Translations under genes and position numbers: made by a program
Notes under the pieces: model-generated
The model's input: only the letters and a program-made list of their open reading frames with translations
The model's database searches: none
Told to the model about the DNA's origin: nothing
Part shown: positions 31,826 to 37,478 of the stretch, piece by piece
Numbering within the stretch: position 1 is the stretch's first letter
Layout of the letters: each line of letters starts with the position of its first letter
NCBI RefSeq assembly: GCF_965276855.1
Contig: NZ_OZ255700.1
Coordinates: 2,912,971 to 2,976,970 of the forward strand
Length of the DNA stretch: 64,000 bases
Reading direction: 5' to 3'
Source of the DNA: Roseibium sp.
GTDB lineage: Bacteria; Pseudomonadota; Alphaproteobacteria; Rhizobiales; Stappiaceae

Positions 31826-31910
31826 GCCCCTCTGGCGGAACTGGTAGACGCGCGGGATTCAAAATCCCGTTCCTTCGGGAGTGCCGGTTCGATTCCGGCG
31901 GGGGGCACCA
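31826..31910 (+). tRNA. tRNA-Leu(CAA)
   Basis: GCCCCTC...GGGGGC-A-CCA acceptor stem, D-loop TGGTAGAC, anticodon arm CGGGA-TTCAAAA-TCCCG, long variable arm, GGTTCGATTCC T-loop; 85 nt. Confidence 0.98.
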
Positions 31911-32120
31911 CTTTTTTCTTTTAGCTTCTATTTCTTGAATAAGCCCGGGTGCCGTTAGGTTGATCTGACTGGATTGCAACAAACAACGGGTTTCGCCGAA
32001 TCTCTACTCAGTCCTTGCCAAAAATGTATGGGCTAGCTGACAACCTTCTGAAGTGCCGTTCAGCCCCCTCTGGTGCCTTCTCGAGCCATGACGTGTGCAG
32101 CATTTTGCTGGTCCTCAACC

Positions 32121-32154
32121 AAAAAACGAAAAGGCCGGGCTGTGCCCGGCCTTT
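32121..32154 (-). terminator. Intrinsic terminator (downstream one)
   Basis: Minus strand AAAGGCCGGGC-ACA-GCCCGGCCTTT followed by TCGTTTTTT. Confidence 0.8.
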
Positions 32155-32178
32155 CCTGTTTGCAGCATCAAGGACCTA

Positions 32179-32277
32179 TCAGAGGATAGATGTTCCATCG
32201 CTGAACCGCAGTTGTTTGATACCAATTAGGGTATCGTTGCCCTCATCACCTACAGTGTCCGTGATGGTTTGAAAGAG
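32179..32277 (-). pseudogene. Orphan C-terminal fragment of an RTX-type protein
   Basis: Manual translation LFQTITDTVGDEGNDTLIGIKQLRFSDGTSIL*. No start codon; out of frame with the upstream gene; lies between two terminators. Confidence 0.65.
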
Positions 32278-32320: not shown

Positions 32321-35110
32321 TTACGGCACTACTGGGGCTTCTGTGACCATGTTAATTGACACCACGTTCACGAGATCACCCCCGTCATAAGCAGACAGCT
32401 TAATGGTATAGATGCCCTCATCTGTTGGGTCGAACGTTGCAAGCGGATTGTCAGCACCGTCATTGAAGAACTCATAATTCCACGACTGCTGAGCGACGTT
32501 GTTTGCATCTATGAGCTGCTGATAAAGATCGGCGTCTATTACGGTTGCGACCCTTGCAGTTTGCCCAGCTCCGTTTCCTGTTGAATTGTCACCAATTGCA
32601 TGATCAGCGCCCAGGTCGGTGATAATCGGATCGAAGGTCAGGAAGTTGGTGTCGATTGTAGGATCACTATCCAACTCCAACACGTATGTGTAGTCACTGA
32701 GTACTTTCCCTGACCCGCCATCAAGGTCAGTGTTTACAGCAAATTCAAAGTTCCAGACCGGTGTGGTCGGAGAATTAGCATCAAAACTAAACCCACCCGG
32801 GGCAATTGCCGCATCAAACGTAAAGGTGCCATCGCCATTGGAGTTGTAAATGCCAGCCGGTTGGTTGTTTGAATCAAATCGCAACTTCCCGCGAATCCCA
32901 AGCTCAAGGCTGTGGTCGGTATTGTCTACGATGGACGTGGTAAAGCTGCCATTTGCGTTCCCGCTTCCGAAAATAATCTCAGGTGTAACGTCCTGATCGT
33001 ATCTGGTCAGCGCTTCCAGTTCCAAGTTGTACACTGCATCCGCAAAAACCAGGTTTTCAACGTCCGTCAGCGTATTGACACCGTTGGCGTCCTCGACATG
33101 AAAGTTGCCATTCGCTAGCAAATCGGTTGTGTAATCCTGAAAGTTCCCAGAAAAAACGGCAACGTCGATACCGACTCCACCGTTGAGTTGATTGTTTCCA
33201 TCACCGCCAATCAGGATATCGTTTCCGTCGCCGCCGTTGAGGATATCGTTGCCTTCTTTGCCGTTCAGCTGGTCGCTGGACGACGTCCCGGTAATGGTTG
33301 AGTCAACAGTGCCCTGATTGGCAGACTTCTCGCCCTGGAATTCGGCGACAACGTCTGTCGTATTCGGGAACGTGATGCCATATGAAGAGCCGTCGATGTT
33401 AGTTTCTGTCACACCATCGATGTTGAACAGTTTCCATGAGGAAACCGCGCCAGAGAGATCCAGACCAGTGATCGACAGTCCATCGAGTTCACCAAAGTTG
33501 AAGATCGCAATCGGGTTCTTGTCATACTCGCCGCTGACGGACACACCGTTGAAGACAACAGTTCCAATGTCCGGAGAGCTTGCCGGAGCTGGATTTGCTG
33601 AGTTGGGAGCATTCAACCCGCCGATCAATTCGATCGCATTGTCTGGTCGAGACCCAATCACCGGACCTCCGGGGTGACCAACGATATTGATGTTTTCAAA
33701 TGTGGCATTTCCGTTGAAGCCGAACAACTTGATATGAGCCGTATTCCCGCCGCCATCTCCATTGTCTGAGAGCGTCGAATTACTGACAACCAATGCGCCC
33801 ATGGCCAGAAGATTTGTCGGGTCCGCATCGTCGGTCGAGAAGATGCCGCGTTCAGTGAACCCATTGATTTCACCATTGGTAAAGGTCAGCGTCCCAATAT
33901 TTGCGCCCGGAGTGACATCGATACCTCGCGTGCTGGTGCCGTTGCCGACAAGATCCAATCCGTCGAGGGTCACGTCACCGTCCACACCGGTCGCAAAGGT
34001 AACCGCCACGCCGGATGCCGGGGCGATGTTGACGTCCCCACCGTTTAACGCTTTGATCGTGATCGCTTTGTCGATGACAAGATTTTCGGCGTATGATCCC
34101 GCAGCTACATAGATAGTGTCACCTGCGGTCGCGGCATTAATCGCAGCCTGGATCGAACCGCCATTAACTTCCGCTGCGTCTACAACGGTGACTGTGATTG
34201 CCGCCGTTGAAGTATTGCCGCTGGCGTCCTGAGCCTCAACCTCGACCTCATAGACGTTGTTTGAGCCTGCATCCTGAGGGATTTCAAAATCAGGAGCAGC
34301 CGCGAACGTCAGGTCACCGGTGTTGGCGTCTATCTGGAAAAGCGCCTGGTCAACGCCACCAACAAGCGAAAACGTCGACGCTTCGTTGGCTATTATCGTG
34401 CCTACGTCGGTCTCGTTTTCATTGATCTCGAAGGTTGATGAAGACGTGATCGTGGGTGGAGTAGTATCTGGCGCTCCGCCGCCGCCGACAGGCGCATCTG
34501 GATCCGCGGGCGAATCGTCCGGATTATCGCTCGGAGTGCCGCTGTTGTTGGGTTGATCGATCGGGTTGCCGGCGGCGTTTTGCGCGCCAGAACGGCCTTC
34601 GTCAAAGCCGAACAGCAGCCAATGCTCAAAACCGCTGGAAAGGGTGCCGTTCGCGACGGCATCAGCAATATCCGGGTTTGCGGCCAAATAGGCGGCTTCA
34701 TCGAAACCTTCGCTGGTCTGTGAGGCGACGGATGCATTCGGAGACCGGCCTTCGCCGGCACCGTGATTGATGAAATGCAGGAACGGACTGATGCCGGATG
34801 CGGCGACGTCCGGGTTTTGTTCCAGATAATAGGTGGGATTGAAGATCGCGTTCGGGCTGCGGCCTTCCGTTTCACCAAACTGGTTGAAGTGGTTGAGCGG
34901 ATTGATGCCGGCAGCAGCAACGTCCGGGTTTTGTTCCAGATAGAACGACGTGTCGAAGTATGGGTTTGGATCCCTGCCTTCTGAAAAGCCAAATTGATTG
35001 AAGTGTTGTTCCGCACTCTCAAATAAACCTGCCTCAATTGCTGCCGCAACGTCAGGATTTTGTGAGAGATAGTACGCAGGATCAAATGATGATGTAATAG
35101 AAAAAGCCAT
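32321..35110 (-). CDS. Large RTX/T1SS-type mosaic surface protein (N-terminal repeats, cadherin, beta-helix, RTX, extra C-terminal domain)
   Basis: 4x FDxxYYLxxNPDVAA...HFxxFGxxEGR; cadherin (INENE...FQID..TG.L.F..APDFE.P.D...NVYEVEV.A.D); SIQAAINAA..GDTIYVAAGSY.E beta-helix start; GGDGND nonapeptides; no Sec signal. Confidence 0.85.
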   Translation of the reverse strand: MAFSITSSFDPAYYLSQNPDVAAAIEAGLFESAEQHFNQFGFSEGRDPNPYFDTSFYLEQNPDVAAAGINPLNHFNQFGETEGRSPNAIFNPTYYLEQNPDVAASGISPFLHFINHGAGEGRSPNASVASQTSEGFDEAAYLAANPDIADAVANGTLSSGFEHWLLFGFDEGRSGAQNAAGNPIDQPNNSGTPSDNPDDSPADPDAPVGGGGAPDTTPPTITSSSTFEINENETDVGTIIANEASTFSLVGGVDQALFQIDANTGDLTFAAAPDFEIPQDAGSNNVYEVEVEAQDASGNTSTAAITVTVVDAAEVNGGSIQAAINAATAGDTIYVAAGSYAENLVIDKAITIKALNGGDVNIAPASGVAVTFATGVDGDVTLDGLDLVGNGTSTRGIDVTPGANIGTLTFTNGEINGFTERGIFSTDDADPTNLLAMGALVVSNSTLSDNGDGGGNTAHIKLFGFNGNATFENINIVGHPGGPVIGSRPDNAIELIGGLNAPNSANPAPASSPDIGTVVFNGVSVSGEYDKNPIAIFNFGELDGLSITGLDLSGAVSSWKLFNIDGVTETNIDGSSYGITFPNTTDVVAEFQGEKSANQGTVDSTITGTSSSDQLNGKEGNDILNGGDGNDILIGGDGNNQLNGGVGIDVAVFSGNFQDYTTDLLANGNFHVEDANGVNTLTDVENLVFADAVYNLELEALTRYDQDVTPEIIFGSGNANGSFTTSIVDNTDHSLELGIRGKLRFDSNNQPAGIYNSNGDGTFTFDAAIAPGGFSFDANSPTTPVWNFEFAVNTDLDGGSGKVLSDYTYVLELDSDPTIDTNFLTFDPIITDLGADHAIGDNSTGNGAGQTARVATVIDADLYQQLIDANNVAQQSWNYEFFNDGADNPLATFDPTDEGIYTIKLSAYDGGDLVNVVSINMVTEAPVVP

Positions 35111-35769
35111 AAATACCCCCTACTAGCTTTCGCTTGCGTTTTAATCTCCGAATTAAGCGGGATGGTTGCGCATTGGGAAACCTAAATATTTTATTTAATT
35201 TATCAATAGGATTATTAACGTGAAGAAAATCGAAAATTCCCCGGAAATCTATAAGGTAATGAATTTAAAGCAATTAATTCTCATTAGTCTGCGAATTAAT
35301 TGCTTGTAAAGGTTAACGCGGCGCCTCGATTAAGTCCAGTTTGGAAGTAAAGAATGTCAATTTTATCGGTAAAAGATACAATCCGATTGTTACAATAAAG
35401 CCTTATCTTATTACTTGGTTTTAAATGAATATAATTACCCGGCAAAGAAACCTCTATCTTTGGCTGCATAGACTGCCAAAATTCTCCTTTTGAATGCCTA
35501 TAAAGCTGATGTCCTGAGAGAGGCAATATGAAGCGGAGCTCTTGCTTGCGCTTTGGATTGGTCCGGACGCAACCCGTTTCCCCAATGGTTGTCCGCCGGA
35601 CGCAATTGCGCGCTCAACGACACGCCAAGACACTGAATTACAGGCAGCGTTGGTATGGCTGGCGATGGTTCTTTTGTTTTTCCGTGGGTCGAAGCCTGGC
35701 TAAAAACCTTCATGCCTGTCGGTTTGCTATGCCTAAGCAATCGTAAATGTAAATAACGAAATTTTAGTA

Positions 35770-35784
35770 TTAATTTCAAGTTAA
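35770..35784. promoter_or_regulatory. CtrA-type site TTAA-N7-TTAA
   Basis: TTAA-TTTCAAG-TTAA, about 175 bp upstream of the protease. The surrounding DNA is AT-rich, so a chance match is possible. Confidence 0.35.
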
Positions 35785-35957
35785 TTGCATGTTCAAAAAA
35801 TATTAATGACGTTCCAACAAACAAAAAATACTAGAATTTCGATTCAATAATTTTTACCACCTGCCGCGCATACTGCCCTCACAAGCAAATAACAAGCTAA
35901 TGCGTCAAACATTCAAATAAACAGGGGCGGTGTATTCATTTCACCGAATGAAAACCT

Positions 35958-37478
35958 ATGTGCGGACTTTGTCACAGTGCTCTTTGTGACGGGATTGAGC
36001 ATGCCCAAGACGGTACATTTTCAGCCGCAGCTGCGTCGGGTCCCGGTGGCACCACATCCCTCAACTATATCATCGGGCAGTTGAACCGCGGCGACTACAG
36101 CTGGGGCGGCATTGCTGTTGTGACTTATTCTTTCGCCAAGGTCCTCCCAAGCTATGCGAAGGGCCTGGATGAGTACGACGGGTTCAACAGTTTCAACAGC
36201 CAGCAAATGGACATGGCGCGACTGGCCCTGGAGGCATGGTCTGATGTCGCCGACATCACTTTTCAGGAGAGCAATTCGTACTTTGCACCGATCCGCTTCT
36301 CCAACTCCGATACTTTGGCGGATTACTCCGCGGCGCATGCTTACCTGCCAGGCTTTTCATCTTGGGCAGGAGATGTCTGGGTCAACAGCAACTACGCGTA
36401 CAACACTGCCCCGGACGTTGGAAACTATGGCTTCAAGGTTCTTGTTCATGAAATCGGCCATGCGATCGGCCAGCCGCATCCGGGCGACTACAACGCTGAC
36501 GGCGGTAAGCTGAGCTATCAAAACAACGCCGCTTATGCCGAAGACAGCGCCCAGTATTCGATCATGTCATATTGGGATGAGAGCCATACGGGCGCTGATT
36601 TCGGCGATGCATATGCCCAGACCCCGATGCTTCACGATATCTTGGCCATCCAAGCAAAGTACGGCGTGAACATGTCGACGCGGACTGATGACACGGTTTA
36701 TGGCTTCAATTCCAACACAAACTCACCGATCTACGATTTTGGTCTGAATACGACGCCGGTGTTTTCGATCTGGGATGCCGGCGGGACAGACACGATCGAT
36801 TTCTCAGGATATGTCGTCAACACGGTCATCAATCTCAATGAAGGCGGTTTTTCCAGCGCGGCCGGCCTGACAAACAACATTTCAATCGCTTACGGTGCTG
36901 TCATCGAAAACGCAATCGGTGGTGCGGGCGATGATGTGGTCTTTGGCAATCAGTGGGACAACGTGATTGATGCGGGTGCCGGAAGTGATGTGTTCGCTGT
37001 TAATCAAAGCCGCACCGCCGCTGACACATACATCTTTGATAATGGCGAGACGATCGTGTTCAGCGCCCACGGGATCGATCGACTCACCAATGTCGAAACC
37101 ATTGCTTATTCTGATGCCGATCTGCAGGTCTTGGCGCAAACACAGCTGTCAATCCTGGAGTATGCCGCGAGTTATCAGGACATCGAAGCTGCATTCGCCA
37201 CGGATCAGGACTTGCTCTTTGACCACTTTGTCGAGTTTGGTTTGACCGAGGGCCGCACGATCGATTTCTCTGCGCTCGATTACATTGCCTCGCATCAGGA
37301 CCTGATCGAGGTCTTCGGGGCAGATGCTGAAGCTGGCGCCCGGCACTACATTGAGTTTGGCCGTGCTGAAAACCGGGAAATCACCTTTGACAGCGCGGCG
37401 TTCCTTGAGGCGAACCCGGAGTTGGTTCAGCTTCAGGGGCAGGAGGTCAACGCAGCGAAAATGTTCATAGAGCTGTAA
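35958..37478 (+). CDS. Serralysin-like M10B zinc metalloprotease with C-terminal repeats
   Basis: HEIGHAIGQPH (HExxHxxGxxH), SIMSY Met-turn, TPMLHDILAIQ..YG, TVYGFNSN, WDAGGTDTIDFS, IENAIGGAGDD. Confidence 0.93.
   Translation: MCGLCHSALCDGIEHAQDGTFSAAAASGPGGTTSLNYIIGQLNRGDYSWGGIAVVTYSFAKVLPSYAKGLDEYDGFNSFNSQQMDMARLALEAWSDVADITFQESNSYFAPIRFSNSDTLADYSAAHAYLPGFSSWAGDVWVNSNYAYNTAPDVGNYGFKVLVHEIGHAIGQPHPGDYNADGGKLSYQNNAAYAEDSAQYSIMSYWDESHTGADFGDAYAQTPMLHDILAIQAKYGVNMSTRTDDTVYGFNSNTNSPIYDFGLNTTPVFSIWDAGGTDTIDFSGYVVNTVINLNEGGFSSAAGLTNNISIAYGAVIENAIGGAGDDVVFGNQWDNVIDAGAGSDVFAVNQSRTAADTYIFDNGETIVFSAHGIDRLTNVETIAYSDADLQVLAQTQLSILEYAASYQDIEAAFATDQDLLFDHFVEFGLTEGRTIDFSALDYIASHQDLIEVFGADAEAGARHYIEFGRAENREITFDSAAFLEANPELVQLQGQEVNAAKMFIEL

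Follow-up and report, generated by a model that had tools for sequence, protein, structure and literature searches.

The C-terminal half of the surface-layer (S-layer) protease Sap of Caulobacter resembles the N-terminus of RsaA, the S-layer protein, and the purpose proposed for this resemblance is that of bringing the protease to its substrate (Umelo-Njaka et al., 2002, as summarised in PMC3034196). Here we describe a stretch of 64,000 nucleotides (nt) of Roseibium sp. DNA (hereafter the window, with positions counted from its first letter), in which two neighbouring genes encode a surface protein of the repeats-in-toxin (RTX) type, referred to below as the adhesin, and a zinc metalloprotease of the serralysin family. 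Copies of the same short repeat make up an N-terminal module of the adhesin (the handle) and a C-terminal module of the protease (the tail). By analogy with Sap and RsaA, we put forward tentatively, at somewhat below even chances, that this shared repeat is a targeting handle that co-localises the protease with the surface protein that is its substrate.

The window protease is organised like Sap in that an RTX/serralysin-type catalytic N-terminal half is joined to a C-terminal part akin to the N-terminus of an RTX surface protein. Homology between the C-terminus of the protease and the N-terminus of its partner was recovered with a joint hidden Markov model (HMM) and with a profile-profile comparison of the two sub-types of the repeat (96% probability, E 1.7e-9). 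The protease also matches positions 30-409 of the 644 positions of the NCBIfam SapA model with 294 bits, whereas positions 410-644 are unmatched and the score is far under the equivalog cut-off of 1200; the two enzymes are not orthologous. Other differences concern the module itself, which in the window is a different domain with no RsaA-like structure found by Foldseek, and the genes, which are adjacent here. The surface protein of the window moreover looks more like an adhesin with swappable passengers than like a lattice-forming S-layer protein.

Caulobacter Sap/RsaA is the closest precedent, and not the LapA/LapG system of Pseudomonas fluorescens, to which an earlier note, made from the window's sequence, had likened the logic of the pair. 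In both systems a large RTX adhesin is controlled from its N-terminal part, and its release is ascribed, as a proposal, to a protease dedicated to it, but the fit proved poor. LapG is a periplasmic cysteine protease of family C93 that acts under LapD and cyclic di-GMP, whereas the neighbour in the window is a metzincin. The sole match to PF06035 (LapG-type C93) in the same genome (G000, 5.23 Mb) is found at 4576024-4576500, 1.6 Mb from the pair. A conserved [T/A/P]AA[G/V] site after the module was not found either: NAAG at amino acids (aa) 179-182 of the adhesin is replaced by NTGG, NTSG or NLAG in orthologues, with loss of the di-alanine.

The classical serralysins (AprA, PrtC and serralysin) have the zinc motif, the Met-turn, the beta-roll, the overall fold and the lack of a signal peptide in common with the window protease. 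Unlike them, the window protease carries three helical repeats after a short beta-roll and a CxxC...C...H motif at its N-terminus, and it is without the classical acidic-hydrophobic C-terminal end and without inhibitor or type I secretion system (T1SS) genes alongside.

Anchoring repeats with known ligands are found in Gram-positive bacteria, such as CWB2 (Cwp84 and SlpA of Clostridioides difficile), the SLH domains and the choline-binding repeats. There, as in Roseibium, one short repeat occurs at either terminus and is common to many surface proteins, including a protease and its processed substrate. The window family, however, has no sequence or fold relation to these repeats, belongs to another cell envelope and is also found on cytoplasmic enzymes. 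Enzymes of polysaccharide assembly also bear non-catalytic arms, e.g., the coiled-coil ruler of WbdD, and in most members of the repeat family the repeat is likewise joined to a glycan-synthesis enzyme, either a glycosyltransferase or a methyltransferase; the two window proteins differ in being of secreted type and without a glycan-synthesis domain.

A repeat shared by adhesin and protease

Four copies of the repeat at the N-terminus of the adhesin and about 2.5 copies at the C-terminus of the protease had been reported earlier. Motif and HMM searches confirm that the repeat is common to the two ends, and the count on the protease is corrected to three units by the AlphaFold2 model, the last being cut within its third helix. 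Searched with a loose regular expression for the unit, the six-frame translation of the genome (5.69 million residues) yields only eight open reading frames (ORFs), and an HMM made from six copies returns the same eight ORFs from the 5.23-Mb genome (E 1e-29 to 1e-77) and nothing else of note, an occurrence far beyond chance. The reported duplication at the DNA level, at about 34.81 and 34.92 kb with a 114-bp period, is also found: the 22-nt word CGTCCGGGTTTTGTTCCAGATA has exactly two occurrences, which start at 34807 and 34921 and are thus 114 bp apart, and the word was matched in 0 of 100 shuffles.

The eight carriers in the genome comprise the adhesin and the protease together with a 689-aa FG-GAP protein, an 809-aa protein without a Pfam match, a 1190-aa DUF4347/RTX protein, proteins of 1386 and 346 aa, and a 362-aa RTX protein. 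All of them look like secreted proteins (RTX, FG-GAP, DUF4347, cadherin-like) and none is a glycosyltransferase (0/8). The module is N-terminal in three carriers, C-terminal in four and internal in one, which agrees with the earlier description of a portable module found at either terminus.

AlphaFold2 modelled the handle (aa 1-185, with a 47-row alignment) as three short helices per unit, with a predicted local distance difference test score (pLDDT) of 87 and a predicted template modelling score (pTM) of 0.75. The tail was modelled as nine helices in three triplets (pLDDT ~95). Its last unit ends in ...AAKMFIEL, which aligns with ...GARHYIEFG (MFIEL in place of HYIEF); the hYIEh sequence at the C-terminus of the protease is conserved, yet belongs to helix 3 of the repeat. 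As modelled, the repeat is predicted to be a folded, non-catalytic and portable helical module of 38-43 aa per unit.

Substitution patterns show purifying selection on the repeat in the adhesin as well as in the protease. The handle is 79-98% identical at the protein level and 75-85% at the DNA level, next to flanks with ~91% DNA identity in close relatives, and its divergence is mostly synonymous because protein identity exceeds DNA identity. The tail is conserved among orthologues like the catalytic domain (65-90% vs 65-96%).

The repeat had been called uncharacterised, and this description holds for the models, structures and literature searched. No Pfam or NCBIfam model covers it in the two proteins of the window or in 93 strong family members. 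A sequence-profile search of the PDB with the repeat gave no match (best E 0.39), and neither did a Foldseek search of the PDB with the handle model (best E 3.6, template modelling score (TM) 0.11), in which no RsaA structure was returned. In the literature, no paper was found that describes the motif strings of the repeat, NPDV together with glycosyltransferases, or relevant work on DUF5338. Judged by Pfam, NCBIfam and PDB matches, the repeat is not a known catalytic domain, and a domain for calcium only is unlikely, given that the repeat is also found on cytoplasmic enzymes and was modelled confidently without ions.

Other assignments were considered and rejected. Known classes of helical repeats (TPR, Sel1, HEAT, ankyrin, PG_binding and DUF4214) have no profile or fold match on the repeat, and Form-deh_trans and DUF6782 yield sub-threshold partial matches only. 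DUF5338 (PF17273) leaves the window proteins unmatched and scores one unit of a paralogue at 19.7 bits (hmmscan) or 13.5 bits (six-frame search) vs a cut-off of 25.9. This model matches 3 of 59 strong family members and may describe a narrow variant of the repeat.

The family as a whole is very large: among sequences that represent clusters at 50% identity, the profile matches 31,001 at E<=1e-3 and 16,837 at E<=1e-10, and a single protein can have as many as 34 matched stretches of the repeat. Members are found in proteobacteria and cyanobacteria, among secreted proteins of planctomycete type and in giant viruses. New here are the conserved pairing of protease and adhesin, the handle that stays constant while passengers are swapped, and the split of sub-types between RTX and non-RTX carriers.

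Linkage of the two genes

That the adhesin and protease genes are linked, as had been suggested, is supported by their co-occurrence and by their adjacency in three independent contexts. Among 72 genomes of the genus, an orthologue of the protease is present in nine, a homologue of the handle in ten and both in nine (Fisher p 1e-10, which is an upper bound on significance as the genomes are related). Six of the nine genomes with both genes have them adjacent and two do not, the remaining one being unassignable. In close relatives (loci L022, L023, L028 and L029), the same slot, flanked by a DedA/DsbB side and a tRNA/CYTH-CHAD side, is occupied by a 506-aa protease with ~91% identity to that of the window and by a surface protein that bears the handle and measures 703, 749, 763 or 1470 aa. 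In a more distant species (genome G025, locus L021), the pair is found in another context, beside Pel-like exopolysaccharide genes and with a third gene for a 261-aa protein composed of the repeat and RTX. The same three genes are located between integrases on a metagenomic contig (L026), where the protease gene is convergent, vs divergent in the window. Adjacency is thereby kept in three different genomic contexts and two relative orientations, and R. alexandrii (GCA_000158095) has this pair as well. A further locus (L024) is truncated where its contig ends. Linkage of the genes is frequent and survives rearrangement, and it is not obligatory.

One possible explanation for the pairing is direct coupling between proteins, in which the handle would bind the tail, and perhaps also the small repeat/RTX protein of 260 aa, without a glycan ligand. 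The travelling of that third protein with the pair in two genomes, as a three-gene module, would be consistent with such coupling, and so would the structural look of the conserved residues together with variable surface positions, as in solenoids matched to a partner. We consider it unlikely, however: with eight carriers in one genome, a receptor common to all of them is more plausible than matching in pairs, some repeat-bearing proteases stand alone, and independent adhesin/protease pairs are too few for co-variation.

The small proteins of 258-261 aa, each with three repeat units and RTX, are encoded after the adhesin at L021 14252-15037 and L026 8575-9351, and neither has similarity to the stretch downstream of the adhesin in the window. 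A 362-aa homologue is unlinked to the pair in the same genome as the window (G000 2181498-2182583). The Pel-like genes at L021 54-7689 (a GT4 with DUF3492, PelG and GH114) stand directly beside the protease/adhesin module.

A constant handle with exchanged passengers

In the adhesin, the four-repeat handle is followed by a Pro/Asp-rich linker and a cadherin-like domain (~aa 240-310). Next come a beta-helix-like region, the RTX nonapeptides at aa 590-660 and, at the C-terminus, a domain of 270 aa. Pfam reports HemolysinCabind (PF00353) with 47.5 bits against a cut-off of 23 and a weak Cadherin match of 26.4 bits, and aa 320-395 have a NosD-like match in NCBIfam. Between strains, identity over the N-terminal 208 aa is 79-98%, whereas the remainder is swapped for unrelated passengers; strains in which the protein sequence of the handle is 94-98% identical have passengers that are merely 24-39% identical. 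At the DNA level, the recombination breakpoint to the variable passenger is placed at ~34487 (similarity stops at 34487-34491). Beyond it, similarity is absent from the passenger in three of four relatives, and it returns at ~31910-32268 in the comparison with the loci of close relatives named above. By these alignments, the surface-protein gene is a cassette locus with a constant handle and linker and with passengers that are exchanged between strains. Such a constitution fits a conserved anchoring or processing end that is joined to a variable functional end.

The same data bear on the idea that the module is a purely structural spacer, or an element for folding or solubility, that has no ligand, in which case adjacency of the genes would reflect co-transfer on a mobile island. 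Long arrays, which reach 34 units, are expected for rods and spacers, the conserved positions are mainly caps and core, and the locus is low in guanine plus cytosine (GC), stands beside a tRNA gene and is flanked by integrases on the metagenomic contig. A terminal array of merely three to four units would nevertheless serve poorly as a spacer, no other part of the surface protein comes near the handle in conservation, and adjacency outlasts rearrangement, the genes being divergent in the window and convergent on the contig. On balance a structural role of this kind seems improbable to us.

By inspection of the sequence, an N-terminal signal peptide is absent from both the adhesin (MAFSITSSFD) and the protease (MCGLCHSAL), and both proteins combine RTX-type repeats (PF00353 nonapeptides in the adhesin, the beta-roll in the protease) with the lack of a Sec signal, as substrates of type I (RTX) secretion do. 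The N-terminus of T1SS adhesins leaves the secretion system last, and the handle could on that account be a LapA-type retention plug, which folds before export ends and stays on the inner side of the outer-membrane channel, while the linker threads the channel and tethers the passenger; the repeats of the protease would then have a separate role. As the fold of the handle also occurs on cytoplasmic glycosyltransferases, it evidently arises in the cytoplasm, and a conserved extended linker of ~45 aa does follow the handle. We regard a plug as very unlikely all the same, given that the module is C-terminal in four paralogues and this end is the first to be exported, that the neighbouring protease is a secreted-type metzincin and no periplasmic LapG, the LapG homologue being encoded elsewhere, and that NAAG after the module is not conserved.

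Sub-types, domain partners and a possible ligand

Two sub-types of the repeat can be distinguished, the YLxxNPDV type to which the adhesin copies belong and the YxASxQDL type of the protease copies. The 38-aa form YLxxNPDVAAAGxNPLxHY prevails in proteins without RTX (733 vs 132 units), and the 40-aa form YIASYxDLIxAFGxDxxxAxxHY prevails in RTX proteins (194 vs 82 units). The sub-types are homologous, since the profile-profile comparison with the values given above aligns them over the whole unit and since both are mixed within single proteins.

Partners of secreted type among the 93 strong matches include RTX (26/93), the serralysin C-terminal domain (10/93) and DUF4347 (7/93), and further ones are lectins, domains of Ig-like or cadherin-like type and proteins with a signal peptide. 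The commonest partners in the wider family are cytoplasmic glycosyltransferases (GT2, GT4, GT8, RgpF and WsaF) and SAM/FkbM methyltransferases, and handle-like proteins of 511-1626 aa are mostly glycosyltransferases. Giant-virus glycosyltransferases (Fadolivirus, Hyperionvirus and Harvfovirus) and an FkbM methyltransferase have the same repeat fold in BFVD (E to 9e-5, 24-39% identity). The repeat family is not specific to secreted proteins, and with the commonest partners being cytoplasmic glycan enzymes, next to those of giant viruses, the view of the repeat as a docking device specific to T1SS cargo has to be given up. What remains of the interpretation in the earlier note is a portable, uncharacterised module on the products of two linked genes, and what is not supported is the T1SS-specific docking and the LapA/LapG logic.

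For co-localisation by a shared targeting handle, the steps would be as follows. The repeat on both proteins would place adhesin and protease at the same extracellular site, at which the protease would trim, mature or release the surface protein. The target of the repeat would be a polysaccharide of the cell surface or matrix; we favour a surface or matrix glycan as the likely ligand, given that elsewhere the family is found mainly on enzymes that build such polymers. It can also be speculated, in a wider proposal that we think rather doubtful, that the repeat is an undescribed three-helix solenoid (FDxxxYLxxNPDV...HYxxxGxxEGR) that recognises bacterial glycan polymers. It would hold the nascent chain on cytoplasmic synthases and giant-virus glycosyltransferases and anchor exported proteins to the finished polymer, and the Roseibium protease would edit or release any passenger that is borne on the handle.

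Several observations weigh against co-localisation at a common anchor. Given that the family is also found on cytoplasmic glycosyltransferases, its role in general cannot be that of a surface anchor. Nor does the sequence imply a ligand common to both proteins, because the sub-types differ and a profile made from the glycosyltransferase type only scores the protease weakly (15 bits). The conserved positions of the unit mostly look structural (helix caps and core), with no conserved ligand site evident. As regards linkage, the common descent of the genomes inflates the statistic for co-occurrence, one Roseibium protease lineage (62-63% identity; L027) is without a repeat-bearing neighbour, and the repeat-bearing serralysins of Niveispirillum and Aureimonas, which stand among housekeeping genes, have no such neighbour either. 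Finally, no T1SS exporter genes, i.e., those for an ATP-binding cassette (ABC) transporter, a membrane-fusion protein (MFP) or an outer-membrane factor, adjoin the pair within its neighbourhood in the window.

Most members of the repeat family are awkward multi-domain glycan synthases, and this locus is a small and tractable case, with two genes in a culturable marine alphaproteobacterium and with a clear readout in a single protein (its size, its retention at the surface and its release). If the module is a glycan anchor or a coupling device, this would help in the annotation of thousands of proteins of polysaccharide assembly and type I secretion. It would also generalise the idea behind Sap and RsaA, namely that of a surface protease that borrows the anchoring domain of its substrate.

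The protease

In the catalytic domain of the protease (aa 41-237), the zinc motif HEIGHAIGQPH occupies aa 164-174 and the Met-turn SIMSY, with its fifth-ligand tyrosine, aa 201-205; a beta-roll follows at ~aa 238-397. H164, E165, H168, H174 and M203 are invariant across 50 homologues, and the active-site residues are intact. Peptidase_M10_C is matched in Pfam with 118 bits and Zn_serralysin in NCBIfam with 340 bits, which is under the cut-off of 500, and the latter match stops at aa 347. The AlphaFold2 model (pLDDT 88, pTM 0.83), with its beta-roll at aa 246-390, resembles PrtC (1k7q, E 4.5e-33) and AprA (E ~1e-33) in Foldseek. Both motif and modelled fold place it in the serralysin (M10B) family and, within that, in a divergent branch with an added tail.

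A C-terminal repeat is present in 36 of 129 homologues when searches with the C-terminal region and with the full length are pooled, and in 27 of the 120 matches of the full-length search. The alphaproteobacterial serralysins (P0295, P0370 and others) carry varied C-terminal add-ons, including DUF4214, FG-GAP, PPC and PF19198. Because these proteins bear so many alternative add-ons, it seems that the serralysin family is generally given to adding a targeting module behind its beta-roll.

All cysteines of the protease are held in its N-terminal Cys/His motif. This motif, MCGLCHSALCDGIEH (CxxC...C...H), may be a latch on the catalytic zinc resembling a cysteine switch; the AlphaFold2 model is without confident structure there. 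CxxC within the first 50 aa was found in 37 of 120 serralysin homologues, i.e., in 19 of the 27 that bear the repeat vs 18 of the other 93 (Fisher p 1.4e-6).

Gene layout and neighbourhood

The features of the locus are collected in Table 1. GC content is 0.48-0.51 across the adhesin gene and the spacer (32-36 kb) vs ~0.57 elsewhere. The adhesin/protease gene module looks horizontally mobile, because of this low GC, the tRNA gene at the boundary and the integrases that flank the module on the metagenomic contig.

Table 1. Coordinates of the adhesin/protease locus within the window
Feature	Position	Strand	Remarks
tRNA gene	31826..31907	+	Rfam tRNA 54.3 bits; borders the low-GC, strain-variable segment with the adhesin gene; synteny with relatives is regained at ~31910
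RTX-type surface protein (adhesin)	32321..35110	-	929 aa; ORF listing, Pfam and NCBIfam
Conserved Pro/Asp/Gly-rich linker after the handle, GAQNAAGNPIDQPNNSGTPSDNPDDSPADPDAPVGGGG...	34406..34576	-	Orthologue alignment
Adhesin N-terminal repeat module (handle), aa 9-178	34577..35086	-	HMM unit E-values 1.6e-16 to 1.9e-20
Handle unit R4, aa 136-178	34577-34705	-	43-aa long form
Handle unit R3, aa 90-127	34730-34843	-	38-aa form
Handle unit R2, aa 52-89	34844-34957	-	38-aa form
Handle unit R1, aa 9-51	34958-35086	-	43-aa long form
Divergent intergenic spacer common to both genes	35111..35957	.	847 bp
Serralysin-family zinc metalloprotease	35958..37478	+	506 aa; divergent from the adhesin gene
Protease N-terminal Cys/His motif CGLCHSALCDGIEH, aa 2-15	35961..36002	+
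Protease C-terminal repeat module (tail), aa 398-506	37149..37475	+	HMM E 1.9e-17 and 1.1e-16
Tail unit P1, aa 398-436	37149-37265	+	Full unit
Tail unit P2, aa 437-476	37266-37385	+	Full unit
Tail unit P3, aa 477-506	37386-37475	+	Degenerate; ends within the third helix at the C-terminus of the protein

Within the spacer, the stretch 35219-35728 cannot be aligned with the relatives in the DNA comparison. No Rfam family is matched over the 847 bp of the spacer, on which basis a riboswitch or other RNA element was rejected, and promoter-like matches are no more frequent there than in shuffled sequence.

Candidate ABC/MFP pairs are found far from the adhesin and protease genes, at 3365227-3370595 and 1344269-1347678 of the genome, with all scores under the PrtD cut-off. 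The region 3365227-3382115 holds a T1SS-like set, made up of a membrane-fusion protein and two ABC exporters, beside a 3793-aa RTX adhesin with cadherin repeats. A classical Lap-like system, comprising the C93 peptidase and the T1SS-like set with the 3793-aa adhesin, may coexist with the pair studied here in the same genome.

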